A DNA stretch of 64,000 nucleotides from contig JBBRNV010000003.1 of NCBI GenBank assembly GCA_038230075.1, positions 29,329 through 93,328 of the forward strand, in the 5' to 3' direction. The stretch is from Minisyncoccia bacterium (GTDB lineage: Bacteria > Patescibacteriota > Minisyncoccia > Phycocordibacterales > CALRBL01). Numbering within the stretch: position 1 is the first letter of the stretch; each line of letters opens with the position of its first letter. Positions 22,385-56,072 of the stretch are shown here, one piece after another. The translations under genes were made by a program, and so were the position numbers. Under the pieces are notes generated by a model that made no database searches, was not told where the DNA came from, and saw only the letters and a program-made list of their open reading frames with translations.

Positions 22385-22413
22385 TTGACTTTTATCAACA
22401 AATGAGCTATAAT
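22385..22413 (+). promoter_or_regulatory. sigma70-like promoter for the sortase gene: TTGACT, 17 nt, TATAAT
   Basis: Near-consensus hexamers; the -10 ends 6 nt before the ATG and no SD is present, so leaderless transcription is likely. Confidence 0.55.
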
Positions 22414-22419
22414 GTTCCC

Positions 22420-23103: not shown

Positions 23104-23157
23104 TAGGCTCTCACAAAAGTAGGGAATTACTACTCAAATAAGACCACAATGAAGTAC

Positions 23158-23185
23158 TTGACAAATCCTTTAATTATGATATGAT
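23158..23185 (+). promoter_or_regulatory. sigma70-like promoter: TTGACA, 16 nt, TATGAT, about 190 nt upstream of the GC-rich ORF
   Basis: Consensus -35 and good -10; the downstream leader holds two perfect hairpins, at 23270-23308 and 23320-23339. Confidence 0.45.
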
Positions 23186-23374
23186 AGTAAATGAAAGTAG
23201 AGTACATTAAAAACTTGTCAGACTAAAAAAAGAAAGTGTTGGTTGTAACAGGTTAAGAGATTCATTGGTGAAGGAAATAAGAACGAATTATTTGTTTTTA
23301 TTTCCTTCACTAAACAAAGTCTGCTTCTCACGAAGCAGATGGTGAATACTCAAACCCAGTAGACCCACACGACC

Positions 23375-24460: not shown

Positions 24461-24491
24461 CAAGTCTACTCCAACAGGAGTCCCACTAAGT

Positions 24492-24545
24492 GGCCAGCAA
24501 GTAATCGAGTTCGCTCGAAATCCTTTGCTGGCCATTTTTGTTTAT
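24492..24545 (+). terminator. hairpin with T-run after the GC-rich ORF
   Basis: GGCCAGCAA ... TTGCTGGCC stem (24-nt loop), followed by ATTTTTGTTT. Confidence 0.4.
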
Positions 24546-24628
24546 ATGATTTGACTTTTTATACTATCTAATGTATAATGATTCTACTTATCCGTAAGAC
24601 GATAGGTTATCAAATTAATAATACTTTT

Positions 24629-38854: not shown

Positions 38855-40063
38855 ATGAATCAATCGTTTAGAGATATATTTTCAACATTTATAGAAACAG
38901 GAGACAGAGCTGGTCCTCAGGGAACAGAAATCGTAGACATGATTCTTAATGAAGGGATACAAAGAAATGCATCCGATATTCATATTCGCCCATATGATGC
39001 TGCAATACAAATATTATTTCGTATTGATGGGATACTCGAAGAAGTACTCATACTTCCTATACATCTTAAAGGTGAAATTATCGCCCGAATAAAAATATTA
39101 GCTCGAATTCGACTCGATGATCACGTGATGCCATATGATGGAAGGTTTAAACATCAATCTCAAACAGTACAAGTTGATATTCGTGTGTCCATGGTTCCGA
39201 CTCAGTTTGGACACAATGCAGTTCTTAGAATCTTAGGAAGCAAACAAGAAATATCGTTAACTTCTCTTGGTTTTTCAAAAACTCAATCAAAACTTCTTGA
39301 AGAAGCAGCACAGAAAGAACAAGGAATGATAGTGGTGGTTGGACCAACAGGATCTGGAAAAAGTACAACATTGTATTCTCTTCTCGACCTTGTTGATACT
39401 AAAAGAAAAAGCGTTATTACTATTGAAGATCCAATTGAGTCCACTCTTGAAAACAGTATTCAAATGCAAGTACAAGAAGAAACTGGATTCACATTTGAAA
39501 AAGGTTTGAGAGCAACATTTAGGCAAGATCCAGATGTCATTATGGTTGGTGAAATGAGAGATGCTGAAACTGCTCGTATTGCGTGTAATGCATCGCTCAC
39601 CGGTCATCTTGTCTTTTCAACCCTTCATACCAAGAGTTCAATTGATGCTATTCCAAGGCTCATCGATATGGGTATTCAACAATACGCCGTCGCTTCAGCG
39701 ATCGATCTCATAATTAGCCAAAGATTGTTACCACTTCTTTGTTTGATGTGTAGAAAAGAGACAGTTCCTCAAATTCACGAAGTTGTTCAACTTGAGAAAA
39801 TGCATATTTCTGAGTATCGAACATTTACAGCCAATGGTTGTGAAGATTGTTCGCATAAAGGATATAAAGGAAGAATTGTTATATCAGAACTTCTTTTCAT
39901 CACACAAACCATTCGAAGTTGTATCGTTTCTAAAAAACAAATTCACAACATGTGTGTATCAGGTCAAAACTTTTATTCAATGAAGAGTGATGTATTTGAA
40001 AAGTGTTACCAAGGATTATTAGACTATCGATCAATATTTTTGTATGAAGAAATTATCACATAA
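38855..40063 (+). CDS. pilB: type IV pilus / type II secretion assembly ATPase (GspE/PilB family)
   Basis: Walker A GPTGSGKSTT, Asp/His boxes, tetracysteine motif (CLMC...CEDC). Confidence 0.8.
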   Translation: MNQSFRDIFSTFIETGDRAGPQGTEIVDMILNEGIQRNASDIHIRPYDAAIQILFRIDGILEEVLILPIHLKGEIIARIKILARIRLDDHVMPYDGRFKHQSQTVQVDIRVSMVPTQFGHNAVLRILGSKQEISLTSLGFSKTQSKLLEEAAQKEQGMIVVVGPTGSGKSTTLYSLLDLVDTKRKSVITIEDPIESTLENSIQMQVQEETGFTFEKGLRATFRQDPDVIMVGEMRDAETARIACNASLTGHLVFSTLHTKSSIDAIPRLIDMGIQQYAVASAIDLIISQRLLPLLCLMCRKETVPQIHEVVQLEKMHISEYRTFTANGCEDCSHKGYKGRIVISELLFITQTIRSCIVSKKQIHNMCVSGQNFYSMKSDVFEKCYQGLLDYRSIFLYEEIIT

Positions 40064-41087
40064 AGAGAAAATTCAATTATGGAAAAAGTTGCATGCACTA
40101 CTCGCTGCCCATATTCCTTTTGACAGAGCTTTAACTATACTTATTGACCAATATAGCAAGACTCCCTTTATGAATAGACTGGAATCTGTCAATAAAGATA
40201 TTTCATCAGGTAAGTCTATTTCTGAGTCATTATTTATTTCAGGGTTGTGTACTACATACGAATTATCTTTGATTAGAATTGGAGAGGAAACCAGAAATCT
40301 TCAACAATCTATTCACTTTCTCATTACGTATCATGAAAAGTTGAATGAACTTAAATCTAAAGTAGTCGGTGTGTGTTTGTACCCTGCAATCATTGGCCTG
40401 TTTATGTTTGGTTTGATTATCTTTCTGGTGATGATTATTTTTCCAAAAATTGTCCCGATGTTTAAAAGTATGAAAGTTACTTTACCTATCAGTACGAAGA
40501 TAATGATTGGTATCAGTGATCTTCTTTCACACCACTATGTGTATGTTATTTCTGGAACTTTAGTAATGCTTGTCTTTGGTTACACAACCTTTACAAAGAG
40601 TAAGGTGGTTAAGAAACATCTTTCTCTTATTCCTTTTTGTATTCCATATATTAAACAAATGATGCATTTGTATGTGTATGCTTCGTGGTCACGAACAATT
40701 GGTATTTTGCTTGCAAGTGGTGTTACAGCTCCACTGTCATTTTCAATCGCTGCTGAAACCATTTCATTTTCTAAGATAAAAAAGTTAAGTATCAGTATTT
40801 CTGAACATATTACTGACGGTGGTCTGATCACGCATCTTTTAAAAAAAGAAAATCAAACTCTTCAACTTTTGTCAGGATTGGTAGGTGTTGGTGAAGAAAC
40901 AGGGACACTTGCTCATAGTTTTATATACGCTGCTGATATATATGAAAATGAATGCTCAGAAGCTGTTAAAAGACTGTCTTCCCTTATTGAACCACTACTC
41001 ATGATATTTCTCGGTGGAATTGTAGTTTTCATTGCTATGGCAATTTTAGGGCCGATTTATCAAATGACCTCTGTAATGAATCATTGA
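40044..41087 (+). CDS. pilC: type IV pilus / T2SS platform protein (GspF/PilC family)
   Basis: Duplicated GspF-type domains with three TM helices; follows the ATPase with a 20-nt overlap. Confidence 0.75.
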   Translation: MKKLSHKEKIQLWKKLHALLAAHIPFDRALTILIDQYSKTPFMNRLESVNKDISSGKSISESLFISGLCTTYELSLIRIGEETRNLQQSIHFLITYHEKLNELKSKVVGVCLYPAIIGLFMFGLIIFLVMIIFPKIVPMFKSMKVTLPISTKIMIGISDLLSHHYVYVISGTLVMLVFGYTTFTKSKVVKKHLSLIPFCIPYIKQMMHLYVYASWSRTIGILLASGVTAPLSFSIAAETISFSKIKKLSISISEHITDGGLITHLLKKENQTLQLLSGLVGVGEETGTLAHSFIYAADIYENECSEAVKRLSSLIEPLLMIFLGGIVVFIAMAILGPIYQMTSVMNH

Positions 41088-41088
41088 T

Positions 41089-42393
41089 ATGCAAAAGCAT
41101 GGAACTAAAGGAATATTGCTTCTTGAGCTTATGCTTTCGTTTGCGTTAGGTACTTTTTTTATTGCAGAGTTATTCTCACTTATTCATGATGAAAGTGGGG
41201 TGGTTTATTCACTTCCAAAGTTAATTCAGAGCTCTTTTGATTTTGAAAAAAAGTATATAAGTCTCATTTCCAATGAAAGCTCTTCGACTGAAAATGTTTT
41301 ACCGATAGATGAATATTCAAAAACTTTCTTTGAAGACGATGAGCGTGGACTTTTAGTTAACATCGATCACGCACTTGGTAGTTCTTCGTGCAACCCATTC
41401 ATTTCCTATGTTTTTGGATCGACAACACACGCAAACATTTATCATTCAACGATTTCTTTTGCAGCAAGAAATATTCCAACGGCTCTTTATACAAGAAATG
41501 GATATGCGTACATAACTACCGATTCTTCAACATCATCTGACCCCGATTTTTACATAGTCAGCCTCAGCGCAACTTCGTCGGAAGTTATTTCAAGTTTACA
41601 AACTGGTCCGGGCCTTTTAAGTGTTGTGGTGGCGGGAAATTATGCATATGTTGGAAATTCCAGTGTTAACTCCCAACTACAAGTTATTGATATTTCGAAT
41701 CCCTATAGTCCAACTTTGGTGAGCTCATATAAACTTCCAGGAAATTACAATGATGCAACAACTGTTGGATTTCATTTATTTTTTGATTCGCACAAAATTT
41801 ATCTCGCTACAAAGAAAAGTCAGATTGAGGAATTACATGTGATTGATGTGAGTGATCCATACCACCCCATTAAGATCGCCGCAGCAGAAATTGGTGCTCA
41901 GATAAATAATATTGATGTTGTCGAAGGTCATATTTACATTGCAACACCACTGAATGAAGAACTTCAAGAATACACATTGCACGGTAATGTTCTTTTAAAG
42001 GTAAGAGGGTATGATGCGCCCAAAGGATCGGGAAATGGACAAGTCTCGCTTGTAAGAGGTTCTCGTGTTGTACTTGGTCGTTCGTTGGGTGATAAAGAGT
42101 TGTATTTTTTACAAAGTTCATCAAGTAACGCCTTTGATGTTTTATATGCAACTTCTGTTGCTGCGAGTATCGACCAATTATTTTTAAGAGGAGATTTGTT
42201 GGTGGCTGTTACTTCTGACTCTGGAAGTCATCTTCGTTTCTATCATGTTTCGAATGACTCTAAACTAGTTACGTTATCGCAAAGTTTTAGTTTGCCAACA
42301 ACCGCTCGATCAGTGGGTTTTGATTGTGATAATGAGTACTTTCTTACTCTAACATCAGAACCTACACCACTTTATATTATTTCAAGTATATGA
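41089..42393 (+). CDS. hypothetical large pilus-associated protein with a pseudopilin-like N-terminus
   Basis: N-terminus GILLLELMLSFALGTFF resembles a prepilin leader/helix; the rest is beta-rich. Confidence 0.4.
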   Translation: MQKHGTKGILLLELMLSFALGTFFIAELFSLIHDESGVVYSLPKLIQSSFDFEKKYISLISNESSSTENVLPIDEYSKTFFEDDERGLLVNIDHALGSSSCNPFISYVFGSTTHANIYHSTISFAARNIPTALYTRNGYAYITTDSSTSSDPDFYIVSLSATSSEVISSLQTGPGLLSVVVAGNYAYVGNSSVNSQLQVIDISNPYSPTLVSSYKLPGNYNDATTVGFHLFFDSHKIYLATKKSQIEELHVIDVSDPYHPIKIAAAEIGAQINNIDVVEGHIYIATPLNEELQEYTLHGNVLLKVRGYDAPKGSGNGQVSLVRGSRVVLGRSLGDKELYFLQSSSSNAFDVLYATSVAASIDQLFLRGDLLVAVTSDSGSHLRFYHVSNDSKLVTLSQSFSLPTTARSVGFDCDNEYFLTLTSEPTPLYIISSI

Positions 42394-42863
42394 AGTCTAT
42401 TTTATCGCCAAGTGAGAAAGGATTCAGTTTACTAGAAGTGCTTGTGTACATTGGAGTTTCAAGTATTTTCCTCTCGTCTATTGTTGGTTCTTTATTTTTT
42501 GTTCAATTTGAATCACAAAAGAATCAGTTGTTATTAACAAATGAAGTTGAAATTTCATCATTTCTTTTGTCATTTGAGAATGTGTTACAAGATTATGCCT
42601 TGAAAGATTTATTGGTTTCGGAACATGAAGTACGTTTCTATGATCAAAATCAGCATATTAACAGAGGATTTGGAATAGAGAACGGATCGTTAGTTGATAA
42701 TACATTTAATTCAAGTAGTTCACGAACTATTGTTGATTCACTTCAAGACATTCGTTTTGAATTACTTCTAGCAACCTCTACTTCACACATACAACATCTC
42801 TTGAAAATCACTCTAAGTTCTAAGGTTTCAGATTATGAAAGGATATATGAAATTAAAGAATAA
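42390..42863 (+). CDS. type IV pilin-like protein (minor pilin)
   Basis: Prepilin motif KGFSLLEVLVYIG. Confidence 0.65.
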   Translation: MKSILSPSEKGFSLLEVLVYIGVSSIFLSSIVGSLFFVQFESQKNQLLLTNEVEISSFLLSFENVLQDYALKDLLVSEHEVRFYDQNQHINRGFGIENGSLVDNTFNSSSSRTIVDSLQDIRFELLLATSTSHIQHLLKITLSSKVSDYERIYEIKE

Positions 42864-43263
42864 AACTGGCTCGACATCAAAACAAGGATTTTTAACCATT
42901 ACAGCTATTCTACTTTTAAGTACGATTGCATTCTTTTATGTATTTCTAGCTTTTTCCCAAACTTTCACACTGCAACGAATATTGACAAGAAGTTACTTGG
43001 CATCGATAGCTAGTATTTATTCTAAAGGATGTTTACATTTCGTCGCTCAACGATTAATCGATGATCATTCTTTCTCTGTATTGTTTTCGATTCCTTACAC
43101 AAAAGGCTTTTGTCAGGTATCAGAAATTTATAAAAATCATGACGGAACTTATAACATCTCAATTAAAACAGTCGTTAAACAACAATATGTCACTGTCGAA
43201 ATCGCAAAAAATATTCAATTGAAAGTTACGAATGAATCTTTTTCAATCTTATCTTCGCACTAG
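42835..43263 (+). CDS. pilin-like protein (degenerate prepilin N-terminus)
   Basis: QGFLTITAILLLSTIAFF N-terminal hydrophobic helix; position in the pilin block. Confidence 0.45.
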   Translation: MKGYMKLKNKTGSTSKQGFLTITAILLLSTIAFFYVFLAFSQTFTLQRILTRSYLASIASIYSKGCLHFVAQRLIDDHSFSVLFSIPYTKGFCQVSEIYKNHDGTYNISIKTVVKQQYVTVEIAKNIQLKVTNESFSILSSH

Positions 43264-43327
43264 ATTTTCTTCATCTTGCATTTAACTGTCATCGATACGA
43301 TGTGTTTATTATTAATAAATAACAATA

Positions 43328-43792
43328 ATGAATAATAAAAATAAACAGAAAGGATTTACGTTGATAGAGTTGTTGGTTGTTATCGGAATTATCGCAATTT
43401 TGGCTGCTGTGGTTTTAATCGCGATTAATCCAGGTCGTCAATTTAAAATTGCCCGAGACTCTCAAAGACAAGCCAATGTCGCAGCTATCTTAAATGCAAT
43501 TGGACAAAATATGACAGAGCATAAAGGTTTGTTCACTTGTGCAGTTCTTCCGATTTCAATTCCGTCAGATCCAATTGCTATAAAAAGAGACAGCGGCTTA
43601 GATATTGCATCTTGCCTTGTTCCATTCTTTCTTTCAGCAATGCCCTTTGATCCAAGTAAAGAAGGAGCTCATTTTATTGATGTTACCGACTACGATACCG
43701 GATATAAAATCTCACAAGACACAGCAGGTAGAATCACTATTTCAGCGCAAAGTGAAGTTACACCTGATACAGAAATATCAGTTACTCGATAA
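43328..43792 (+). CDS. type IV major pilin
   Basis: Canonical prepilin leader and helix KGFTLIELLVVIGIIAILAAVV. Confidence 0.85.
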   Translation: MNNKNKQKGFTLIELLVVIGIIAILAAVVLIAINPGRQFKIARDSQRQANVAAILNAIGQNMTEHKGLFTCAVLPISIPSDPIAIKRDSGLDIASCLVPFFLSAMPFDPSKEGAHFIDVTDYDTGYKISQDTAGRITISAQSEVTPDTEISVTR

Positions 43793-43900
43793 TTACTGAG
43801 ATAATTAGATGTATTTACCTTCTAAAATTGAGACAAATAACTCTCCATAACCCCACGTGGGTTTGTTGCACACAGCCATGAAATAGCTGATAATGAGGCC

Positions 43901-45376
43901 ATGGATAACCAAACTCCTCAAGCACGCACCATTGTTGCTGATGTTGCTCACCTCATAAAAAACAATCAAATTTCCACAGAAGAACTTGCAAAAATTGACC
44001 CATTACTTAGAAGTCAGGCAGAAGAATACGCAAAAGGAATTACAGACGTTGTTATTGATCTTGCAACACTTTCAAAAGAATATAAAAATAAGCAATCTTC
44101 AAAAGATCAAAATTCTTCCAAATCACTTCAAAATGACACAATCGAAATCATGCATCAAAGTTCAGATCCATATGATATAGAAGATGTTTCTCGGTCAATT
44201 GAAGACAATAAAGAAGCAAGGTCTGGAGAGTTGCCAACTGAAGATGTCCCAAAAGAAAAAATGGTAGATATAAACGGAGACTCTCTTGCTGGTCAAGACG
44301 AAACAGATCTAAATTCGAACACAACAGATGGAACAGATGAAGGAGTGGTTAAAGATACGAAATCACTCGCATATCGAGAAGAGCTTGAAAAGGCTATGCA
44401 GGGAGGTAATGATCAGGGGGTAAATTTGATAGACGAATCTATTGTAGTGCCTGTGAAAAAGGTTAAAAAAACAAAGATTGTCGTAGGTGATGCGTCAGAA
44501 ACATCTCAGTCTAAAAAAATTGATGAAAGTATGCCAGTAGAAGTTAATCCAAAGACCGAACTGCAACAAAAAATTGAGGAGCTTCATTCAAAACTTGATT
44601 CGTTTGATATCCGCATTAAAGATATTGATACAAAGAAACAAGAAGAACTCACTAGAAAACAAGAAATTTTAACGTCAGTAGATGAAATTGTGCAGAAGCA
44701 ACACACTATTCAAAATAAAGAATCAGAAATTGAGACTTCGATTGAAAAAGAAACAGAACGAAACAGAAAGAAAGAATATGAACAAGAGAGATGGAATTTA
44801 GAAGATCAAAGAAAATCTCTTGAAGACACAAGATGGAGTCTTGATAAAGAATTAGGCACTCTTTCGAAAGAAGAAAAAGAATTATCTGATGAAGAAAAAG
44901 ATTTAGTTCAAAAAAAGTCTCAAATTGAAAAAGATTTGGTAAAAGTTGAAAAACGCCTTAAAACAATTGAAAGCTTTGAACAAGTCGATGATTTAAAGAA
45001 AAAAGTGTTGTTTTTAAAAAAAGAGATAGATCGAAAAAATAGTGAAGTTCAAGGTGCGCAGAAGACATATGAGGTAAGCAAAAAGTCGTATGAGGAACAA
45101 GAAACTGAAGAAAAGAAAATACGAGCACAAATAAAAAGAATCGAAACAGAAGAAAGCTCACTCAAAACAGAAGAAGAGCGTCATATAAAAGAAGATCAGC
45201 GATGGGCTCTTGAACAACAACTCCGAGCTTTTGTTCAGAAGGTGTGGGGAACTGAGGATGAGATGAGTTCAAAAGAGAGTCTTTTTCAAGCATCTCTCGA
45301 AGAGCTCTCAAGGTTGTCAGAAGAATTGCAGAAACTTCAAAATGAAATTTCTAAACTTGAAGGTGATATTGTATAA
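43901..45376 (+). CDS. hypothetical long coiled-coil acidic protein
   Basis: Lys/Glu-rich heptad-like sequence across 490 aa, no TM helix. Confidence 0.5.
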   Translation: MDNQTPQARTIVADVAHLIKNNQISTEELAKIDPLLRSQAEEYAKGITDVVIDLATLSKEYKNKQSSKDQNSSKSLQNDTIEIMHQSSDPYDIEDVSRSIEDNKEARSGELPTEDVPKEKMVDINGDSLAGQDETDLNSNTTDGTDEGVVKDTKSLAYREELEKAMQGGNDQGVNLIDESIVVPVKKVKKTKIVVGDASETSQSKKIDESMPVEVNPKTELQQKIEELHSKLDSFDIRIKDIDTKKQEELTRKQEILTSVDEIVQKQHTIQNKESEIETSIEKETERNRKKEYEQERWNLEDQRKSLEDTRWSLDKELGTLSKEEKELSDEEKDLVQKKSQIEKDLVKVEKRLKTIESFEQVDDLKKKVLFLKKEIDRKNSEVQGAQKTYEVSKKSYEEQETEEKKIRAQIKRIETEESSLKTEEERHIKEDQRWALEQQLRAFVQKVWGTEDEMSSKESLFQASLEELSRLSEELQKLQNEISKLEGDIV

Positions 45377-46053: not shown

Positions 46054-47397
46054 ATGTATATTCGTCGAAAAAAGAATACGCTTAGTATAGTGTACAGTCT
46101 TATTTTGGCGACCATTCTTTCAGTTGGAATTATCGGATCGATCTTCGTATATAAAATAGTTGATAATATCAACAAGCAGCATTTAATTGACCGTGCAAAT
46201 ACCGTTGCACAAGCTCTGTATAAGCCTGATCTTGAGAAATTAAAAGGATCTGAGTCAGATCTAGCATCACCCTCGTATGAGGCGATTAAAAACACTCTCA
46301 CCAATATTAGAGCTGTAAACAGCGATGTGCGATTTGCATACTTGGTTGGAATCACTGATAAAGACGTTTTCTTTTATGCGGATTCAGAGGATCCAACATC
46401 ACCCGATTATTCACCACCTGGGGAAACGTATCCTGAAGCGAGTGATTTACTAAAATCTGTTTTTTTAAAAAACCAAGTAAATATTGAAGGCCCACTCAGT
46501 GATCATTGGGGAACATGGATTTCAGCATTTGCACCGATTTCACTTAGTAACGACGGGGGAATCACTTCAAAAATGGTTATTGGTCTTGATATTGTTGCAC
46601 ACGATCATATTGTTGATGGTATTGCATATGCTGCAATTCCATTAATCTCGTCACTTCTTGTTCTTATTATTCTTTCGAGTGCATATAAGACACGAAAAAG
46701 AGAACAAGAGTATATTGCACAAAAAGAAGAATTCTTAGCAATAGCCGCACATGAAATTCGTGCGCCACTTACTGGTATTCGTTGGGCCTCAGAACACCTT
46801 CTGGCAAATTCAAAAGATTTTCCGAGTGAAGATCGAAATGTTATCTCAATGATTTATACAAGCTGTGTTAATTTGATTTCTCGAATTAATAATCTGTTGT
46901 CTCTTACACAAATTGAAAGTCAGTCAGCAAAAACAATGACATTAGAGAAAGTTGAAATTCGTCCGTTTATTCAAGAAATAATAGATAATCTTACCCTGTC
47001 GGCTAAAGAAAAAAATATCACATTGACAATAGATAGCTCTATTTCAAACACACTTAGTCTAATAGTTGATAGGGAAAAAATGAGACAGGTATTTCTCAAT
47101 CTTATTTCAAATGGGGTTAAGTATACAAAAGATAATACTGAGGTAAAGGTTGAGTACGATCTTTCTGATCATGCACATGTCTTTGAGATAATTAACCATA
47201 GTGAAAAGATATCTGAGTATGACCTACAACACATCTTCGATGGATATTATCGGGCCAAAGAAGCTATTAAAAAGTCACCATATGGAACGGGAATTGGCCT
47301 CTTTCTTTCAAAACAGCTTATAGCACTTCACAAAGGAACACTTAGTGTGTGGAGTAATGAAAACAGCACAACGTTCATCGTTGAATTACCTCGATAG
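46054..47397 (+). CDS. sensor histidine kinase with an extracytoplasmic sensing domain
   Basis: Two TM helices flank a periplasmic domain; H-box IAAHEIRAPLTGI; HATPase motifs (ISNGVKYT, GTGIGL). Confidence 0.8.
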   Translation: MYIRRKKNTLSIVYSLILATILSVGIIGSIFVYKIVDNINKQHLIDRANTVAQALYKPDLEKLKGSESDLASPSYEAIKNTLTNIRAVNSDVRFAYLVGITDKDVFFYADSEDPTSPDYSPPGETYPEASDLLKSVFLKNQVNIEGPLSDHWGTWISAFAPISLSNDGGITSKMVIGLDIVAHDHIVDGIAYAAIPLISSLLVLIILSSAYKTRKREQEYIAQKEEFLAIAAHEIRAPLTGIRWASEHLLANSKDFPSEDRNVISMIYTSCVNLISRINNLLSLTQIESQSAKTMTLEKVEIRPFIQEIIDNLTLSAKEKNITLTIDSSISNTLSLIVDREKMRQVFLNLISNGVKYTKDNTEVKVEYDLSDHAHVFEIINHSEKISEYDLQHIFDGYYRAKEAIKKSPYGTGIGLFLSKQLIALHKGTLSVWSNENSTTFIVELPR

Positions 47398-47416
47398 CCA
47401 GCAACAATGGTAAGAC

Positions 47417-47794
47417 TTATAGAAGTTTACTTTTCACCACCTCAACAATATTTGAAAGTTGTTGTTCTGATTTAACTAGATATGCTGCAACGTTGTGACT
47501 CATGGCGCCTGCAAGGTATTCCATTTGTTGAGCGTTCGTTAAAACAATAACAGGAGTTTTGTTTTCTGGATCTTTTTTTCTAAACTCTTCGAGAACTTGA
47601 AGACCATCCATTTTAGGCATTACCATATCTAAAATAATTGCATCTGGTTTCTCACTAAATATCTTATCAAGACCTTCTTCTCCGTCATGAGCCACAACCG
47701 CATTGAACCCTTCTTTGGTAAATTGACTCAAAAGAACTTGTTGGAGCATTTTGTCGTCTTCAATAATGAGTACTTTTTTTAGATGTGTTGTCAT
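47417..47794 (-). CDS. stand-alone response-regulator receiver (CheY-like)
   Basis: KVLIIEDD; phospho-acceptor IILDMVMPKMDG; conserved T and K (VIVLTNA, AYLVK); no output domain. Confidence 0.8.
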   Translation of the reverse strand: MTTHLKKVLIIEDDKMLQQVLLSQFTKEGFNAVVAHDGEEGLDKIFSEKPDAIILDMVMPKMDGLQVLEEFRKKDPENKTPVIVLTNAQQMEYLAGAMSHNVAAYLVKSEQQLSNIVEVVKSKLL

Positions 47795-47837
47795 AGTAAT
47801 AGTATAAAGGGGATTCTTATTTTTGGACAGGTAATAA

Positions 47838-49136
47838 TTATAGGAAAGCAATAATAGAGGCAACACCTGAGATAAGCATGAGAATGGTGACAATCCACCC
47901 GACAAAACTTGTAAAGGGCTTATTCTTTCGTTTTCCCATAATACTTTCTTTACTACTCATGCTTACAATAAGCACAAGAATGACAGGGGCAATAACTCCA
48001 TTTGCAACAGCAGAGTAAATAAGGGCTTTTATAGGGTCGAGTCCAATAAAATTAAGAAGAAGACCAATAATGACAGAAACAATAATAACGCCATAAAATG
48101 CGTAGGCATCTTTTAGTTTTCGGTAAAGTCCTTGTTTCCAATCAAAACTTTCTGCGATGGCGTATGAGGTTGATCCTGCAAGAATTGGTACGGTTAAAAG
48201 CCCAGTTCCGATAATGCCAAGAGCAAAAAGTAAAAAGGCCCAATCTCCCGCGAGTGGTTTAAGAGCGGTTGCAGCATCAGCTGCGGTTGTAATGTTAGTT
48301 ATGCCATGTGTGTACAACGTTGCCCCACATACCATGATAATAAAAAACATCACAATATTTGAGACAAACATACCAGACCACACATCGACTCTCATTGATG
48401 TAACATCTGCATCGGTTGTTATACAAAGCTCTTCTGGTGTGGTTTTTCCTTCGAGAATTTCTTCTTCAATTTCTTGTGATGTTTGCCAGAAAAAAAGATA
48501 AGGCGAGATGGTAGTACCCAAAACTGCACAAAGCAAAATGATGTGCTCTTTTGAAAATGAAATTGAAGGAATAACAGCATGACGAAATACTTCTTGTATA
48601 TCAACATGAATTAAAAATCCTGTAACTACATACGATACCAAAATTAGCGCCAAATATTTTAAATATTTGGCATATGTTTTATATGATGTAAATATTTGAA
48701 GCAATAAACTAATGAGTGCAAATAGAATAACTGAAACGGTAAATGGAATAGGAGTAATGAGCTCGGTTGCTTTTGCCATCGCACCTAAGTCTGCACCTAA
48801 ATTAAATGTGTTTGCGATAAATAAAAGTGACGTGCAAATATACAACACCCATTTCGGATAATGTTGTCGAATATTTCCCGCTAATCCTTTTCCGGTTACC
48901 AATGCCATTCGGGCACACATCTCTTGAATAGTTGCCATAAGAGGAAGGGTAAATATGGCGAGCCATAAGAACTGAAATTTATATTGAGCGCCAACCTGTG
49001 AATAGGTTGCGATACCTGATGGATCGTCATCAGCTGCTCCTGTGGTTAACCCTGGCCCAAGTTGTTTCCAATACTTATTAGCGCCATCAATTGTCTGCCG
49101 AATCATTGTTGGTTTTTGAAATTCTTCTGGGTTCAC
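47838..49136 (-). CDS. mntH: NRAMP-family divalent metal transporter (MntH-like)
   Basis: NRAMP signatures GPGLTTGAADDDPSGIATYS and MATIQEMCARMALVTG. Confidence 0.8.
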   Translation of the reverse strand: MNPEEFQKPTMIRQTIDGANKYWKQLGPGLTTGAADDDPSGIATYSQVGAQYKFQFLWLAIFTLPLMATIQEMCARMALVTGKGLAGNIRQHYPKWVLYICTSLLFIANTFNLGADLGAMAKATELITPIPFTVSVILFALISLLLQIFTSYKTYAKYLKYLALILVSYVVTGFLIHVDIQEVFRHAVIPSISFSKEHIILLCAVLGTTISPYLFFWQTSQEIEEEILEGKTTPEELCITTDADVTSMRVDVWSGMFVSNIVMFFIIMVCGATLYTHGITNITTAADAATALKPLAGDWAFLLFALGIIGTGLLTVPILAGSTSYAIAESFDWKQGLYRKLKDAYAFYGVIIVSVIIGLLLNFIGLDPIKALIYSAVANGVIAPVILVLIVSMSSKESIMGKRKNKPFTSFVGWIVTILMLISGVASIIAFL

Positions 49137-49159: not shown

Positions 49160-51094
49160 TTATTTTGTTTTGAATTCATAGACCCCGTTCCAATTTTCTG
49201 GAGGTTGTTCAATCAAATGTGTGCATCGTTCAATATATACAGCACTTGGTCCGTCATGGTGAAATGATAATGCTTGATTGAAAGAATTGATAGCATTTTT
49301 AAAATCTCCTTGAACATACAACACTCTTCCTTGTTCAAACTTTTGTAAGATTTCTGTAATGTGAGGAGTCTCTGGACGAGTAAGAAGTTCATATATTACT
49401 TTTGGCTCTTTTTTCCCTTTTACAATTACTCGGTCAAGTTCTCTGAATAGAATTTGAGGATGATTTTGTTGTGTCGAAGGTGAAAGTTTTTTAAGACTCG
49501 CTTCGCATTGTTTTTTTGTTTCTTCAGTAATAATGCATTCAACTCCATATGCCTTAGTTAAACCTTCGAGTCGTGATCCTAAGTTAACCTCGTCACCCAT
49601 AATGGTGTAATTGAATCGCCGTTTGCTTCCCATATTTCCAACAACAACATCTCCTGTGTTGAGTCCAATTCCAATCGCAATAGTTGGCGAATTTCTTTCA
49701 ACGAGTGATTCATTTAATTTTTTCAACTCTGCAGACATGGTAAGTGAAGCGACACACGCATCGTATGCTTGATCGTTATTTTGAAGTGGTGCTCCCCAGA
49801 ACGCCATAATTGCGTCACCAATATATTTATCAACCAATCCTCGTTTGTTCATGATGGTGTCGGTCATTAATGTGAGGTATTCATTTAACAGATTAGTCAG
49901 TTCTTCTGGAGACAATTTTTCAGAAAGTGTGGTGAAGCCTCGAATGTCTGAGAATAAAACAGTAACTTTCTTTCGTTCACCCCCCAATTTTAATTTATCT
50001 GGATTTTCGAGAAGTTCGTTGATAACATCGGGCATTAAATAATACTGAAATGTTTTATGAATCATTCGCTTTTCTTTTCCTTCAGAAATATATGAATACA
50101 GAAAGCTTAAGATTCCTGAAACAATAAAAGCAAGAAGTGCATACAATGTTCCGAAAATATAATGAAAATGAAATACACTAAATGTTCCAAGAATGATAAG
50201 AGCAAAGATACTTGAAAGACTAATAATTACGAGAGAAAGTCTCTTTGAAAGAACAATAGAAAGAGAAGTGAGGAGTGAGATAAGGAAAAGAATTAAAAGG
50301 AAAAGTGCGTTTGGAATAGGTGTGAGAAAATTTTTCTCAAGAAGTGTGTTGATGGCATTTGCATGAACTTCAACACCAGCCATGCTTCCGAATGGAGTCT
50401 GTAGTTGATCATGTAAATCATTCGCCGTCACTCCAATAAGCACAATGGCATTATCAAATATTCTAGCAGGAATTTTATGTTCGAAAACGTCAGCAAAAGA
50501 AAGTATTAAAAAACTTTTTGAGGGACCGACGAACGTAATTCTGTTTTGAGTTGATGTTTCTGTTTGTCCTGAGACAACACTTGAAAAGCTGCGCTCACTA
50601 TCATTACTCGTATTGTTAATTCGTCGAACGATTCCGTCAGAATCTACAGGGATATTTACAAAGCCTTTTTTTACCGACTGATCAAAAAGAGGGAGTGGGC
50701 GTACTCCAACTGTACTGTCATCTCTTAATTGAAGAGGGAAAGTGACAGGGACTTTTGAAGCATTGATAGCTTCTTTAAAAACCAGGTCATCATTATTGTC
50801 TTTGAACGAAGGACTTGAGAAGTCGATATCAAAACCGATAGCTTTAGCAAGTTGAAGATCGGGAATAACCGACGCAAATGTTTTTCGTTCCCAAGGCCAA
50901 CGTCCCATACTCTGAAGACTTTCATCGTCAATTCCAAGAATGATAATAGAAGATGTAACTTTTTGCTTCAGAAATAAATGATCAGTGATTTTTTCTTGCC
51001 ATGTTCCAAAAACATTGTATGTGTAGGCGAAAGCAGAAAGAATAAAAGCAACAAGTACAAATAAACTCGTAATAATTATTTTTTTATTTGGCAT
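49160..51094 (-). CDS. CHASE2-sensor class III adenylate/guanylate cyclase with a C-terminal TPR-like tail
   Basis: N-terminal TM helix plus CHASE2-like periplasmic domain, a four-helix TM block, and a cyclase core (VTVLFSDIRGFT ... GDAIMAFWGAP ... IGLNTGDVVVGNMG). Confidence 0.8.
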   Translation of the reverse strand: MPNKKIIITSLFVLVAFILSAFAYTYNVFGTWQEKITDHLFLKQKVTSSIIILGIDDESLQSMGRWPWERKTFASVIPDLQLAKAIGFDIDFSSPSFKDNNDDLVFKEAINASKVPVTFPLQLRDDSTVGVRPLPLFDQSVKKGFVNIPVDSDGIVRRINNTSNDSERSFSSVVSGQTETSTQNRITFVGPSKSFLILSFADVFEHKIPARIFDNAIVLIGVTANDLHDQLQTPFGSMAGVEVHANAINTLLEKNFLTPIPNALFLLILFLISLLTSLSIVLSKRLSLVIISLSSIFALIILGTFSVFHFHYIFGTLYALLAFIVSGILSFLYSYISEGKEKRMIHKTFQYYLMPDVINELLENPDKLKLGGERKKVTVLFSDIRGFTTLSEKLSPEELTNLLNEYLTLMTDTIMNKRGLVDKYIGDAIMAFWGAPLQNNDQAYDACVASLTMSAELKKLNESLVERNSPTIAIGIGLNTGDVVVGNMGSKRRFNYTIMGDEVNLGSRLEGLTKAYGVECIITEETKKQCEASLKKLSPSTQQNHPQILFRELDRVIVKGKKEPKVIYELLTRPETPHITEILQKFEQGRVLYVQGDFKNAINSFNQALSFHHDGPSAVYIERCTHLIEQPPENWNGVYEFKTK

Positions 51095-51098
51095 GTGT

Positions 51099-52277
51099 TT
51101 AATACCCAGTCGTGTACGAACCGTATGAGTAGGTAACTGTTAGGCCACTTTTATATGAAACAGTAGAGTCATCTTTTAATAGAAGATATACATCGTAAGT
51201 GCCTGGAGAAAGCTGGCCGATATGAAATTGAAGTGTTCCATCATCGATAACAGAAAGATCTTGGACATTGTTTTCTCCAATGATGACATCTGAAACATTT
51301 TGGAAACCAGTTCCTTTAAGAATGACATATGTTTTATTGTCGCCAGAAGCAATACTTGATGGAGTAACACTTCGAATACTTGTTGGTGTTGAAGCACCAC
51401 TTGTTCCTCCTGAAGAAGCTGGTGCAGATGGTGATGGAGCCGATGTGATTCCTCCTCCCGAAGATTGTCGAGGAGGGACTGGTGTTACCGGTGGTGGTGT
51501 TATGCTCGAATTGTTTCTTGTAGTGGTTGTAGCTCGAGGAGTACTTGTTGAAGTTGTTATTGGTTTTACAGAAATTGTTGCGTCGCTTGTAATAACAACT
51601 GGCTTTGCATCTGCATTATTATAGACATACCATTCTTTCTTCATGTCATCACCTGAAATGGGAATAACCACAATATCTTTTCCATCTTCAATGATTGCTT
51701 TAAATCCTGCCTTAACAGAAGTTTCAGTTCCTTGAATAGGTTCTCCTGTTGTAGGATCTTTTTTGTACACAAATACTTCACCTTCAGTAACATTTACTTC
51801 AGTAATGCCACCTGCAAAGTTCACGCCAAATGATGTACCACGAACAACAGCAACAGCATTTCCTGTTTTAATTTCGAAAAATTCTCCTTGTTCAGCAGAT
51901 TTTTTAGCACGTGCCCATAATTCACCACCAAGTAGTTCAATGTTATTTTTTGTCGTGTCGTCAGAGGTGCTCACTACCACCTCACTGTTGTAATCAACCA
52001 TAGTTGGATGTCCGTGAGGAGATTCAATAAGTGCTCGTCCGGTTGATGAGGTTTTAATTACAGAGTTGCTTGGAGTAGTTGTACTTGTTGGAATAGCTGT
52101 GTCGGAAGAAGCATCTTTCATTCGAAGTGAAACATTCTGTTCAACGGTCGTTACGGTAATAGGAAATGTTGCTGCAGATGTGGGCATGACTGTTTTTGTG
52201 TCCGATTGATTTTTGTATAAAAGAAAGACAGCCCCAAGAATGATAATCGCGACTATACCAAGTGAAAGTTTTTTCAT
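51099..52277 (-). CDS. FecR-domain plus IPT/TIG-domain secreted or anchored protein
   Basis: N-terminal TM helix; FecR-like beta region (AVVRGTSFGVNFAGGITEVNVTEGEVFVY); Pro/Ser/Thr linker; C-terminal IPT-like domain; 4 bp upstream of the cyclase start. Confidence 0.55.
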   Translation of the reverse strand: MKKLSLGIVAIIILGAVFLLYKNQSDTKTVMPTSAATFPITVTTVEQNVSLRMKDASSDTAIPTSTTTPSNSVIKTSSTGRALIESPHGHPTMVDYNSEVVVSTSDDTTKNNIELLGGELWARAKKSAEQGEFFEIKTGNAVAVVRGTSFGVNFAGGITEVNVTEGEVFVYKKDPTTGEPIQGTETSVKAGFKAIIEDGKDIVVIPISGDDMKKEWYVYNNADAKPVVITSDATISVKPITTSTSTPRATTTTRNNSSITPPPVTPVPPRQSSGGGITSAPSPSAPASSGGTSGASTPTSIRSVTPSSIASGDNKTYVILKGTGFQNVSDVIIGENNVQDLSVIDDGTLQFHIGQLSPGTYDVYLLLKDDSTVSYKSGLTVTYSYGSYTTGY

Positions 52278-52358
52278 TCGAATATCATAGCAAACATTAG
52301 TCTTTTGTTCGACACTCCTTCAAAGTGCGACTTTTTATGTCGTAATTTGTTATCCACA

Positions 52359-52388
52359 TTGACGAGTGAACGATTGTTCACCTATACT
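52359..52388 (+). promoter_or_regulatory. promoter TTGACG, 18 nt, TATACT with an embedded perfect palindrome GTGAAC-GATT-GTTCAC (candidate operator)
   Basis: The palindrome at 52366-52381 sits exactly between the -35 and -10 hexamers. Confidence 0.5.
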
Positions 52389-52415
52389 GTAATCATACAA
52401 AATAATTAAAAACAT

Positions 52416-52607
52416 ATGAGCGAACAACAATACAAAAACTGGATAGGAAGAGAGTTGCAGCGATTAAATGAAATAATCGATTACAACATATTACATGGGT
52501 TCAACTATCGAGAAGAATCAAAAAAACATAAAGCACTTTTAAAACAGACTGAAGTGATGCAAAAGAAAGAACAGAAAAGAAGTGTCTTCAGTTTTATGTT
52601 TAGTTAA
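52416..52607 (+). CDS. hypothetical small basic protein (63 aa)
   Basis: ORF downstream of the promoter/operator; no recognisable domain. Confidence 0.35.
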   Translation: MSEQQYKNWIGRELQRLNEIIDYNILHGFNYREESKKHKALLKQTEVMQKKEQKRSVFSFMFS

Positions 52608-52661
52608 TCTTTATACTATCTTTATTTTGTTGTTCGCCGAATTTTAATGTTTGAATCTAAA

Positions 52662-52720: not shown

Positions 52721-53020
52721 TTAGTTGCGCAACCGAATGCTTAAGGGGCCAATGTTGATGGCGGAAAGCCGTTGCGCCAACTTCTGACGCTGCTGCGGAG
52801 GAGTAGTATGGTTGAAACCACCATGAGTGGTTGGAGGGACAAACTTTTGACCTTCAGGTTGCATGATCGGATAGAGCCGACCATCTTTCAACAAGTAGGC
52901 CACATGGACCAATTTCTTGGTTGGGCGGCGCGCAGGCTGCTGAGCCTGTGCGGAAGGGGTGAAGATGACGGAGGTGAAGGCGAACACGAGGAGCGCCAAG
53001 ACGAGTTTGAGGATGTTGTT
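52721..53020 (-). CDS. hypothetical small secreted protein; GC-rich cassette
   Basis: Signal peptide (LALLVFAFTSVIFTPSAQA), GC3-rich codons; start set at the Met that begins the signal peptide. Confidence 0.5.
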   Translation of the reverse strand, partial: NNILKLVLALLVFAFTSVIFTPSAQAQQPARRPTKKLVHVAYLLKDGRLYPIMQPEGQKFVPPTTHGGFNHTTPPQQRQKLAQRLSAINIGPLSIRLRN

Positions 53021-53146
53021 CATGCTATCTAAAGCCAGGCTAACTAGCTTCACATAGCATGAACACATCGAAGAACTTTACTATCGTATTATACCATATT
53101 ACTGATAAATGTCAATTAATCAGACAACATTAAACCAGCCTTTATG

Positions 53147-53841: not shown

Positions 53842-54243
53842 ATGCGAAAAAGTAAGTACACTCCTGGAGACTACAAAGTTGTTGTTAAGCGTTCATCTGC
53901 AGGTCTTGGTTTATTTGCTTCTGAAGAAATTCCAAAAGGAAAGTGTGTCATCGAATATGTGGGAAGAGTAATTAAAGGAAAAGAAGAATATACCAGCAAT
54001 AGTAAATACTTATTTGAGGTTCACTCTCGAAAAACTATTGATGGAAGAGATCGCTCAAATATAGCTCGATATATTAATCATTCATGCAAAGCAAATGCTG
54101 AACCGACTATTCATAAAGCACGAGTATTTATTATGTCTAAAAGGAAGATACTTGCTGGAGAAGAGATTGTGTATGACTATGGTGAAGATTATTGGGGTGA
54201 ACACATACAACCAAAAGGATGCAGGTGTAGAAAGTGCTCATAG
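53842..54243 (+). CDS. minimal SET-domain protein lysine methyltransferase
   Basis: GLGLFA (GxG), RYINHSCKANAE (NHSCxxN), EEIVYDYGEDYW (ELxxDY) and post-SET CRCRKC. Confidence 0.8.
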   Translation: MRKSKYTPGDYKVVVKRSSAGLGLFASEEIPKGKCVIEYVGRVIKGKEEYTSNSKYLFEVHSRKTIDGRDRSNIARYINHSCKANAEPTIHKARVFIMSKRKILAGEEIVYDYGEDYWGEHIQPKGCRCRKCS

Positions 54244-54823
54244 CACCACGTTTCGTTGACTTTCTTTGTAAAGATTGTACTGTATTTTAAGAATGAAAAC
54301 TATTTCTGGTTGGAGGCCGACATTGTTGGCAGAAAGGTTGTTAGAAGAGCGTGAGAATCGCGGTGGGTTTATACAAAAAAGGTAGTTGAGAAGACAAAAA
54401 TCAAAAAGGTCTGGGGAAAAAATGCAAAAAAAAGACCGAAAGCTCGTCCCGGATTTCACCTGACCAGCAAACCCAAAGAACTTGCTCGACATTTTGTTGG
54501 AAACCGATTTCTGACTGCTTTGAAAGGAAAGTTGTTTCGAGATCCTTCCAACTTCTATTACTTTATGTGGAATGCTGTGCACGTGCACATTTTACACATG
54601 AGCGAAGAGGGGTTGGTGGATGTTCTTGAAAAGTTCTCTTCGAACGATCCTTCTTTTCCGCGAAGTATGACCGCAGAACGGCTGCTTCGTGGTAATCTCA
54701 CTAACAGCTTTTACCAAAAGGGACAAGTTGTTACATATGTAGATTCGGTGATTGCAATCATCGTTGCTGCCGTCTATGATTTTGTTTTTCCTCCCACACT
54801 TTCTGTTGCTCAAAAACAAGGCA

Positions 54824-54857
54824 ACAAAAAGAAAAAGAAAAAGAAAAAGAAAAAAAA
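54824..54857 (+). repeat. (AAAAAG)n microsatellite
   Basis: aaaaagaaaaagaaaaagaaaaagaaaaaaaa read directly. Confidence 0.8.
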
Positions 54858-55027
54858 TTTCGCGCTACAATCTCACTCCAACCACTGACCTCGCCTTAAA
54901 CCGGCGAGTTTTGTGTTTTATAAAACAAAGCTCCGCGTATCAATATATAAAAAGGAAAACCGCTCGCCGAAGGTGAGCTCATTGAGCGGGTCCTTGGGGA
55001 GCGATTTGTGTACCGAATGTTCGAAGA

Positions 55028-55759
55028 CTAGCCGCCAGGAGTGTAGATCGGCATCTCCTTAAACTTGAGACGACGAATCAGGTCGGTGAGGATGAGTCGA
55101 ACCACTTGGTCTCGATTCATATCAGTATTGTCGATTTCCATCGAACAAGGATGCCTCACGAATGGTGAAACCGATCTTTCGGTATCGTGCCTGTCGCGCT
55201 TCTGGAGCCCTTGTACGATCTCTGCGTACGTTTGTTCGGGCTGATCTTTCGGCTGATCCTTAAAGCGGCGAGCTGCTCTCGTGGCGACCTCGGCGGTGAT
55301 GAAGTAGCCGCTGCACCGACCGTTTTCGGCGTCGAAGATTTTTCTCATGTCCCGACCTTCGGGCACGAGACCAGGCAGTTGCCTGCGGGACATCTGATAG
55401 TCGTGCATCATCGCACGTACTTCTGGTATTGCGCTGACAGCGGAAACCCGATCCGAGCAAGCCTTGTAGCGAATTTCTTCGGTGACTTCGATTTCACCGA
55501 CGAAAACCTTCCCATCGACGAACGTTGTCGGATACTGAAGTGCGACTTCGATCACATTGTTCGGATTGGTGATGTCGATACCGTGGACGATGGTGAGGTG
55601 TGCCACCGACCGGTAGAGAGCGCCGCTGTCGAGGTGTTTGAAGCCGAGAATTCGAGCAAGCTCACGAGCGGTCGAACTTTTGCCGGATCCGCCAGGACCA
55701 TCGATGGCGATAACTTCTGCGAGTAGATTAGGAGGTGTTAGTTGAGTGAGGGTGGCCAT
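55028..55759 (-). CDS. cmk: cytidylate kinase; GC-rich gene
   Basis: IAIDGPGGSGKSSTARELARILGFKHLDSGALYR matches the Cmk P-loop/NMP-binding signature; GC3-rich codons, about 55% GC. Confidence 0.8.
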   Translation of the reverse strand: MATLTQLTPPNLLAEVIAIDGPGGSGKSSTARELARILGFKHLDSGALYRSVAHLTIVHGIDITNPNNVIEVALQYPTTFVDGKVFVGEIEVTEEIRYKACSDRVSAVSAIPEVRAMMHDYQMSRRQLPGLVPEGRDMRKIFDAENGRCSGYFITAEVATRAARRFKDQPKDQPEQTYAEIVQGLQKRDRHDTERSVSPFVRHPCSMEIDNTDMNRDQVVRLILTDLIRRLKFKEMPIYTPGG

Positions 55760-55902
55760 TCGGCCTCCTTTCTTTTTCGAGGGGTGAAACTGTGGGTGAG
55801 GTTCGTCTTCGAAACACATGTATGAGTCAAAGAAGAGCTTTCAATAGAGTAGTGGTTTAGAGCATTAAAGTCAAACCATATATTACAACAAAGAGAATAA
55901 CT

Positions 55903-56072
55903 TAATCGGTACTAATTTTATATCCGAGCCAGATACCAGCAAGTCCTCCAACAGCAGTTAATATTACTGATGAGAGTGAAAAGAAGCTGTCACCCCAGAG
56001 TTCAGGAATGAATCCTCCGATAGTTGATCCGATAAACAAGAAGAGAAAAATAATTTGTTTTGATGCCATATA
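55903..56072 (-). CDS. small hydrophobic protein (55 aa), absent from the ORF track because it is under 60 aa
   Basis: ATG at 56072 directly abuts the stop of the AI-2E gene; translation is MASKQIIFLFLFIGSTIGGFIPELWGDSFFSLSSVILTAVGGLAGIWLGYKISTD, i.e. two predicted TM helices. Confidence 0.4.

Follow-up and report, generated by a model that had tools for sequence, protein, structure and literature searches.

Two adjacent genes in a stretch of 64,000 nucleotides (nt) from a Minisyncoccia bacterium (assembly GCA_038230075.1, contig JBBRNV010000003.1; the whole stretch is referred to below as the window) probably make up a sensory module conserved in the Candidate Phyla Radiation (CPR; Patescibacteria, Parcubacteria-type), in which a receptor-type class IIIb adenylate cyclase is accompanied by a FecR/IPT protein working as extracytoplasmic co-sensor. 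The FecR-domain/IPT partner (392 amino acids, aa) is encoded at 51099-52277, according to the list of open reading frames (ORFs), and the CHASE2 class IIIb adenylate cyclase (644 aa) at 49160-51094, according to the same list and to Pfam. All features of the pair described below lie on the minus strand. The stop codon of the partner gene (TAA, 51099-51101) and the ATG of the cyclase (51092-51094) are separated by a 4-nt spacer at 51095-51098, which reads ACAC on the coding strand. This spacing, and the location of the two genes on the same strand, had been pointed out in an earlier note on this DNA, and the coordinates were verified in the sequence. The G+C content at the pair (0.36-0.40) equals the average of the window (0.384), and gives no sign of recent import.

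Homologues of the cyclase are numerous (7763 at E<=1e-10). The closest are 41-53% identical over the full length, and belong to microorganisms with Parcubacteria, Paceibacterota, Minisyncoccia and Uhrbacteria names. Such relatives fit the small genome that the earlier note had in mind when it remarked on cyclic-nucleotide signalling in a minimal-looking genome, but the rarity implied by that remark is overstated, the cyclase family being abundant in CPR. Synteny was analyzed in 80 loci from species-representative genomes and in four added contigs (loci are denoted by L numbers). Twenty CPR-type loci had enough upstream sequence to be assessed; some are records of metagenome-assembled genomes labelled as non-CPR (Gammaproteobacteria, Methanosarcinales), and labels are given as recorded. 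In 18 of the 20, a FecR gene of the same orientation resides immediately upstream of the cyclase gene (L001, L003, L004, L005, L007, L008, L010, L011, L016, L017, L021, L035, L048, L049, L074, and L083 to L085), and most gaps measure -4 to +20 nt. All other neighbouring genes differ between CPR-type loci. The adjacency and the 4-nt spacing agree with the earlier suggestion that the two genes are one unit, and we infer that they are co-transcribed and translationally coupled. In the sample as a whole, FecR is the largest cluster of neighbours (37 loci, in 28 of which it sits at position -1 in the same orientation), and a FecR gene is found within ±6 kb of the cyclase in 35 loci. Adjacent FecR genes mark 13 Acidobacteriota loci, too.

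The class III cyclase homology domain (aa 375-565; 49400-49972) was delimited by Pfam, alignments and the structure model. The match to Guanylate_cyc (PF00211) covers residues 375-565, with E=9.8e-25 and 87.6 bits against a cut-off of 21.9. The best sequence matches in the PDB are Cya2 (2w01, E=3.7e-34) and P. aeruginosa CyaB (3r5g, E=9.6e-31). The model of the catalytic domain fits Cya2, CyaB and CyaC with TM-scores of 0.84-0.88, and the AlphaFold2 (AF2) monomer model of the whole cyclase has a mean pLDDT (predicted local distance difference test) of 90. Alignment to Cya2, CyaB and OaPAC identified the metal-binding aspartates as D383 (FSDIRGF) and D427 (IGDA), and alignment to Cya2 (2w01 and 6fht), CyaB (3r5g) and OaPAC the transition-state pair as N504 and R508, both within EVNLGSRLE. 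At residue level, the purine-selecting pair corresponds to K423 and T497, the latter fitting the DYTIIG motif of CyaB. The codons of all six key residues were confirmed in the DNA. An alignment of 25 family members shows D383, K423, D427, N504 and R508 without exception, and T497 in at least 90%. Since all catalytic residues are present and conserved, the cyclase is, as judged from its sequence, a catalytically intact class III enzyme and not a pseudo-cyclase. The Lys423/Thr497 pair marks it as a class IIIb adenylate cyclase, predicted to convert ATP to cyclic AMP (cAMP), and not as a guanylate cyclase.

These data settle several points of the earlier note. The class III core described there as canonical is indeed so, and a pseudo-cyclase lacking the metal aspartates or the Asn/Arg pair, which the note had taken into account, is not what was found, as D383, D427, N504 and R508 are all in place. 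The specificity residues, named there as a point to check, carry the class IIIb signature. Of the cAMP/cGMP signalling capacity claimed, the cAMP part stands and the cGMP part does not, the product predicted from the Lys/Thr pair being cAMP. The three domain assignments (CHASE2, PF05226; Guanylate_cyc, PF00211; FecR, PF04773) all score above the curated Pfam cut-offs.

The CHASE2 sensor (aa 19-275 by Pfam PF05226; 50270-51040) is located between the first transmembrane helix (TM1, aa 2-25) and TM2, and is predicted to face outward. The match spans positions 5-254 of the 257 of the profile, with E=5.9e-43 and 147.7 bits against a cut-off of 26.3. Many invariant Asp residues and a GxWPWxR motif are featured by the family alignment. 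Three further transmembrane helices follow CHASE2 (aa 262-338; 50081-50311), as denoted by hydropathy and the model. Helices in the model span residues 2-25, 262-282, 286-309 and 316-349, and the transmembrane part of the last ends at about residue 338. Positive-inside charges are found at K4/K5, K284/R285 and K340-K347, the last being a K/R cluster after residue 338. Their distribution predicts that CHASE2 is outside and the catalytic domain inside the cell. The predicted topology thus features a cytoplasmic N-terminus, one transmembrane helix, CHASE2 outside, three transmembrane helices, and the catalytic domain inside. An N-terminal CHASE2-type extracytoplasmic sensor had been proposed before and is upheld by the Pfam score, its outward placement being predicted from hydropathy and charges. 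The four-helix membrane block proposed with it is correct in the total of helices, but these are not contiguous: one is N-terminal, and three come after CHASE2.

TM4 is connected to the catalytic domain by a helical linker (aa 339-372, KTFQYYLMPDVINELLENP; 49979-50080) conserved with the linker of Cya2. It aligns from residue 344 to the Cya2-derived linker of 6fht, and in the model the last transmembrane helix continues unbroken into the catalytic domain. The C-terminal tail (aa 577-644; 49163-49366) was assigned from sub-threshold TPR matches and the model, and is made of one TPR-like motif, a capping helix, and an end peptide of the type W-x-GVYEFKTK. Matches to TPR_11 and TPR_2 at residues 586-618 fall below the Pfam cut-off (17 bits against about 27). 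The model has three helices at 577-629, corresponding to about 1.5 repeats, and G589, A601 and F605 fit the spacing of TPR positions G8, A20 and F24. TPR-like, the term given to the tail in the earlier note, would apply to a single motif, with three helices, conserved residues at TPR spacing, and Pfam scores below threshold. Some homologues of the cyclase carry precomputed TPR matches in Pfam. F586, Y593, A601, F605, D614, R623, P632, G637 and K644 are invariant in the family alignment. As tblastn matches reach residue 644 in most non-CPR loci, the tail belongs to the whole cyclase family, beyond CPR.

The partner is predicted, largely from its model, to be a type II membrane protein, essentially all extracytoplasmic, made of a signal anchor, a FecR beta-domain, a Ser/Thr/Pro stalk and an IPT/TIG domain. 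The mean pLDDT of its AF2 model is 81. The N-terminal signal-anchor helix (aa 3-24; 52206-52271) is denoted by a hydropathy peak of 2.37 and a model helix. Only about 2 residues precede it in the cytoplasm, as in most of 37 family members, and no Cys lipobox was found in the N-terminus. An extracytoplasmic all-beta domain of the FecR type follows (aa 40-206; 51660-52160; pLDDT >90). Pfam FecR (PF04773) matches residues 73-168 with E=1.6e-15 and 57.7 bits against a cut-off of 24. Foldseek relates the domain to the periplasmic domain of a putative anti-sigma factor of Parabacteroides (4m0h/4m0n, E~1e-6, target TM-score (TMt) 0.51) and to the C-terminal cell-surface signalling domain of PupR (6ovk, TMt 0.54). 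When the partner sequence alone was searched against the PDB no match was obtained, and the FecR fold emerged by structure comparison only. Next comes a disordered linker rich in Ser, Thr, Pro and Gly (aa 232-293; 51399-51584; pLDDT <50), which varies in length and sequence across the family; no tandem repeat was found in the DNA encoding it. The C-terminal beta-sandwich (aa 300-382; 51132-51380; pLDDT ~90-97) is of the IPT/TIG type. Pfam gave no call for it in this protein. The family profile matched in the PDB the IPT-like SGBP-B (6e57, E=6.6e-10), as well as domain D of CGTase, recovering the IPT part only, and the model fits the IPT/TIG domain of EBF1 (3mqi) with TMt 0.75 in Foldseek. Forty homologues of the partner with the same architecture were detected; nine carry a precomputed TIG match (PF01833), and many lie on contigs equal in length to those bearing homologues of the cyclase. 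Partners range from 327 to 698 aa, the C-terminal domain being variable and the FecR domain constant. Both domain names given to the partner in the earlier note are thus appropriate, FecR by its Pfam score, IPT by family profile and structure model.

Residues Gly147-Thr148 of the partner, within the motif VRGTSF (51834-51839), align to Gly181-Thr182 of E. coli FecR, the motif being matched to ALGTEF of that protein in an alignment made with a profile hidden Markov model (HMM). The VRGTSF motif is invariant in 37 CPR partners, and among 36 FecR domains that accompany CHASE2 cyclases in various phyla, 34 have the Gly-Thr pair. In E. coli FecR, Gly181-Thr182 is the site of self-cleavage (PMC8144685, PMC12036975). 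By analogy with genuine FecR, the FecR domain of the partner may cut itself at G147/T148. FecR/FoxR-type anti-sigma factors have in common with the partner the FecR-fold extracytoplasmic domain and Gly-Thr at the aligned self-cleavage position. The partner differs from them in having neither the cytoplasmic sigma-binding domain nor the C-terminal domain which binds the transducer, and no FecI or FecA partners were found. E. coli FecR carries a twin-arginine motif and follows the Tat pathway, whereas the N-terminus of the partner (MKKLSLG) has no twin-arginine motif.

Earlier publications describe an association of FecR proteins and CHASE2 sensors in Campylobacterota, Sinorhizobium and Burkholderia, and the locus is a CPR member of this association. 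In Campylobacterota a gene cluster encodes a CHASE2 adenylate cyclase, a phosphodiesterase, a FecR-domain protein and a TPR protein (PMC9239204). Cluster and pair have in common the genetic linkage of a CHASE2 class III adenylate cyclase and a FecR-domain protein, with a TPR (here TPR-like) element belonging to the system. In Campylobacterota FecR is described as an outer-membrane protein, TPR forms a protein of its own, and the cluster includes a cAMP phosphodiesterase. In contrast, the CPR partner is signal-anchored and has an IPT tail, the cyclase itself carries the TPR-like motif, and a phosphodiesterase was not found nearby. CyaD1, CyaD2 and CyaK of S. meliloti are, as the cyclase under study, receptor-type CHASE2 adenylate cyclases, and the gene of the FecR-domain protein SMc02177 lies beside cyaD1. 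The gene smc02177, regulated by Clr, was studied alongside the CHASE2 cyclase gene cyaD1 and proved dispensable for signal perception (PMC5498481). CHASE2 cyclases of S. meliloti respond to a plant protein signal via the outer-membrane protein NsrA (PMC13001267), and an extracellular proteinaceous cue is thus relayed through an accessory envelope protein. Signal entry needs the beta-barrel NsrA and the CRP-family receptor Clr, and a counterpart of neither was found here. The Burkholderia 'BiofilmReg' operon encodes a response regulator, a LysM-FecR protein and a CHASE2 histidine kinase (PMC5192318). As in the CPR pair, the gene of a FecR-domain extracytoplasmic protein is located directly upstream of that of a CHASE2 sensor with 1 + 3 transmembrane helices. 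The two systems differ in output and partner, histidine kinase and LysM in Burkholderia, cyclase and IPT in CPR. The kinase case shows that the FecR link tracks the CHASE2 sensor and not the output domain. Among solved structures, the closest catalytic domains are those of Synechocystis Cya2 (2w01) and P. aeruginosa CyaB (3r5g), and Cya2 also has the pre-catalytic helical linker in common with the cyclase. The membrane module of CyaB is MASE2, not CHASE2. Nothing specific on CHASE2 cyclases or cAMP in CPR was found in the literature.

The module might work as follows. The cyclase would act as a homodimer, as class III enzymes carrying just one catalytic domain do. Each active site would span the dimer interface, with D383 and D427 holding the metals, K423 and T497 the adenine, and N504 and R508 the transition state in the conversion of ATP to cAMP. 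About 230 aa of CHASE2 would be exposed outside the membrane and be contacted there by the FecR-like partner, serving as extracytoplasmic accessory protein or co-sensor. The partner would set the activity of the cyclase through the helix running from TM4 to the catalytic domain, and the flexible stalk would allow the IPT domain to reach the wall or a ligand at the external surface.

A more specific version, to which we assign a small probability, is that FecR-like proteins linked to CHASE2 are self-cleaving, membrane-tethered co-receptors. Cleavage at Gly-Thr would split the beta-domain, a cue from a surface or a host, sensed by the IPT domain on its stalk, would pull off or release the C-terminal fragment, and the CHASE2 cyclase would be switched, sending cAMP to a non-canonical effector. 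Release of a fragment is modelled on the C-terminal FecR fragment of ferric-citrate signalling; a non-canonical effector is invoked because no CRP, cyclic nucleotide monophosphate (cNMP)-binding or GAF protein was seen near any CPR pair. If true, this would supply the long-missing input mechanism of CHASE2 and, in CPR, a contact sensor needing no outer membrane. What CHASE2 domains sense has been stated as not known (PMC5192318).

Other explanations were weighed against a cyclase and FecR/IPT co-sensor module. The partner might be an independent surface adhesin or wall protein, like Leptospira LipL45 and Lsa33, sharing a transcript with the cyclase and exerting no control on it. The partial NCBIfam matches to Lsa33 (E=3e-8, 33 bits against a cut-off of 420) and LipL45, which are far below threshold, point in this direction, as do the IPT/TIG domain on a Ser/Thr/Pro stalk, typical for surface proteins, the presence in the window of a second TIG protein (6837-7430) and of a sortase locus, and the dispensability of S. 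meliloti smc02177 for signal perception. An adhesin is nevertheless unlikely. If no functional link existed, it would be difficult to account for adjacency in 18 of 20 CPR-type loci in spite of the complete turnover of the other neighbours, and for the recurrence of the pairing in Acidobacteriota, Campylobacterota and rhizobia, and with CHASE2 kinases. Moreover, the FecR domain stays constant while the C-terminal domain varies. Alternatively, bicarbonate or CO2 acting on the catalytic domain could be the main regulator, CHASE2 and FecR having mostly a role in localisation or dimerisation. Class IIIb cyclases with the Lys/Thr pair are known to respond to bicarbonate, Lys423/Thr497 is the class IIIb signature, and P. 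aeruginosa CyaB and CyaC, the latter determined with bicarbonate bound to the entries 1wc5 and 1wc6, are among the closest structures. We regard bicarbonate as an improbable main regulator: it would not explain why CHASE2, with its roughly 230 aa and numerous invariant positions, has been conserved, nor why an extracellular protein is dedicated to it. Moreover, carbon and CHASE2/FecR inputs are not mutually exclusive.

The earlier note had also given the partner a possible anti-sigma-like role. Taken to its end, this would make it a true cell-surface-signalling anti-sigma factor subject to regulated proteolysis, and the nearby cyclase incidental. The FecR Pfam domain, the Gly-Thr self-cleavage motif and structural neighbours which are periplasmic domains of anti-sigma factors agree with such a role. 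The architecture does not: with about 2 residues before the transmembrane helix the cytoplasmic anti-sigma domain is missing, and the IPT domain takes the place of the C-terminal STN-binding domain. A Pfam sweep of the ORFs of the window returned no match to Sigma70_r2/r4 of extracytoplasmic function (ECF) sigma factors, TonB_dep_Rec or STN, and neither ECF sigma factors nor TonB-dependent receptors were found beside CPR pairs, L084 having only a sigma factor of the primary type, with regions 1-4. The sortase gene in the window is consistent with a single-membrane envelope. An anti-sigma role is effectively refuted, and the module is not an anti-sigma system of the FecR/FecI type. It is likewise very unlikely that the enzyme is a guanylate cyclase like Cya2, or a dead pseudo-cyclase. 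Cya2 (2w01) is the best sequence match in the PDB, and is named guanylyl cyclase in its entry, but wild-type Cya2 has the specificity residues Glu (idEfmGD) and Gly, where the cyclase has Lys423 and Thr497, like CyaB. The chimera 6fht also features Lys (idKfmGD), an engineered Glu-to-Lys change which we take to confer adenylate specificity. Inactivity is contradicted by the six catalytic residues, all present and conserved in the family.

Some data weigh against the module as proposed. The extracytoplasmic accessory role of the partner toward CHASE2 is a plausible reading of the synteny. Conservation of Gly-Thr could be structural rather than catalytic. Two CPR-type loci, L012 and L014, have no FecR gene, and in 11 loci, mostly of Betaproteobacteria and Acidobacteriota, a gene encoding an FHA-domain protein is found at position -1 instead of FecR; FecR is a frequent, not universal, partner of CHASE2 cyclases. 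The search for receptors and phosphodiesterases covered the 64-kb window and the surroundings of CPR pairs and detected neither, although both occur next to proteobacterial homologues. No cNMP-binding, CRP, GAF or phosphodiesterase domain was found by Pfam in the window (about 68 ORFs). Two custom HMMs for cNMP-binding domains, which picked up receptors next to 12-13 non-CPR cyclases, gave no match in the window translated in six frames nor in any CPR-type locus. The non-coding stretch 5' of the pair (52278-52660, minus strand), bounded by the hairpin and T-run of the preceding small gene, is expected to carry the promoter of the pair, yet a promoter scan found no strong minus-strand promoter in it, and the promoter was not confidently placed. 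At the other side an Nramp gene starts 23 nt downstream of the cyclase. As no terminator was found between the two, read-through is possible, and the transcript may exceed the two genes and include Nramp.

A cyclase and FecR/IPT co-sensor module in this lineage would imply that at least some CPR, despite reduced genomes, retain a receptor-type system generating cAMP, with a dedicated extracellular partner. A single-membrane envelope has been reported for CPR, and the sortase gene agrees with it. That the FecR-CHASE2 pairing is kept in a lineage with probably a single membrane argues that FecR acts directly with CHASE2, and not via TonB-dependent outer-membrane receptors. A two-protein system with a conserved Gly-Thr would be a simple handle on CHASE2 sensing. 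The practical value is modest, since the pairing has been published for other phyla and public CPR genomes already list these genes under the names adenylate cyclase, CHASE2 and FecR family protein.

Several features are located upstream of the pair. The 443-nt gap preceding it has no match in Rfam, and a riboswitch or structured RNA was therefore discarded. A palindrome, GTGAAC-AATC-GTTCAC in the coding-strand reading, lies at 52366-52381 (minus strand), 104 nt upstream of the FecR start. It was rejected as operator of a regulon: it occurs in one exact copy in the window, near-matches are at chance level, and it is not common to the upstream regions of other pairs. In L004 the FecR gene is preceded, at a distance of about 156 nt, by the sequence GCTCAC-AATC-GTGAGC, hairpin-like, with the same 4-nt centre and different self-complementary arms; these are two cases, and may be due to chance. 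Farther upstream, the ATG at 53023 opens a small minus-strand ORF (52721-53023, about 100 aa) that features a clear signal peptide, MNNILKLVLALLVFAFTSVIFTPSAQA. It is preceded by a perfect sigma-70 consensus (TTGACA-16-TATAAT with TG extension, 53115-53088) and followed by a strong GC-rich hairpin with a T-run (about 52700-52660). Having its own promoter and terminator, it is a transcription unit separate from the pair. Its G+C content is 53.8% (window, 38.4%), and it is absent from the automated gene calls of the contig. The ORF was considered as cognate ligand of the module and discarded on the basis of its own promoter and terminator, of the lack of homologues in the sampled loci, and of the lack of analogous small secreted ORFs upstream of other CPR pairs. 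A 133-aa SET-domain protein (E=4.6e-22) is encoded at 53842-54243 on the plus strand, divergent from the FecR gene and about 1.5 kb upstream of it. In L005 the FecR gene is preceded, at a distance of about 700 nt, by an ORF (2891-3400) whose N-terminus looks SET-like by eye, and which may represent residual synteny.

On the other side of the cyclase, just past the Nramp gene, a histidine kinase gene (plus strand) converges on that of a REC-only response regulator (minus strand) at 46054-47905. The regulator measures 125 aa in the contig annotation and 162 aa in the ORF list, the start of the ORF being probably too far upstream. Nramp, response regulator and histidine kinase were considered as parts of the module and rejected, as they are conserved in no other locus. 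A type IV pilus or pseudopilus cluster at 38855-45376 (plus strand), about 4 kb from the cyclase, encodes an ATPase resembling PilB, a platform protein resembling PilC, two to three prepilin-type N-methylation proteins, and a beta-propeller protein of the LVIVD type; a further ORF in it, of 491 aa, has no match in Pfam. Although PilM and PilO reside nearby in L001, no pilus genes were found within 10 kb in L083, L084 and L085, and the link was dismissed as coincidence.

CHASE2 cyclases of Betaproteobacteria (L032, L038, L056, L058, L073, L077, L078) are embedded in a recurrent set of genes, in the order CHASE2 Ser/Thr kinase, PP2C phosphatase, FHA protein, CHASE2 adenylate cyclase, PDEase_II/MBL hydrolase, and cNMP-binding plus rhodanese protein. 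The set looks like a complete cAMP module tied to Ser/Thr phosphorylation, with FHA occupying the position that FecR has in CPR.

The second IPT/TIG protein of the window (6837-7430, plus strand, 197 aa; PF01833, E=8.7e-10) is encoded between gatB and the GAPDH gene, and indicates that IPT domains recur among the predicted surface proteins of the organism. The sortase gene is located in the region 22378-26338, and is followed by large ORFs either lacking Pfam matches or proline-rich and 'extensin-like'; G+C is raised there to about 44%, and at 23375-24535 ORFs overlap on both strands. Two genes of the release-factor type (PCRF and RF-1) were found at 429-1313 and 10106-11113, both on the plus strand. 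The first is short (294 aa), and matches the PCRF profile at positions 95-194 only. The region of the cytidylate kinase gene (54500-56000) has a raised G+C content of 47.7%, and includes a doubtful ORF of 122 aa (54520-54888) with a run coding for poly-lysine.

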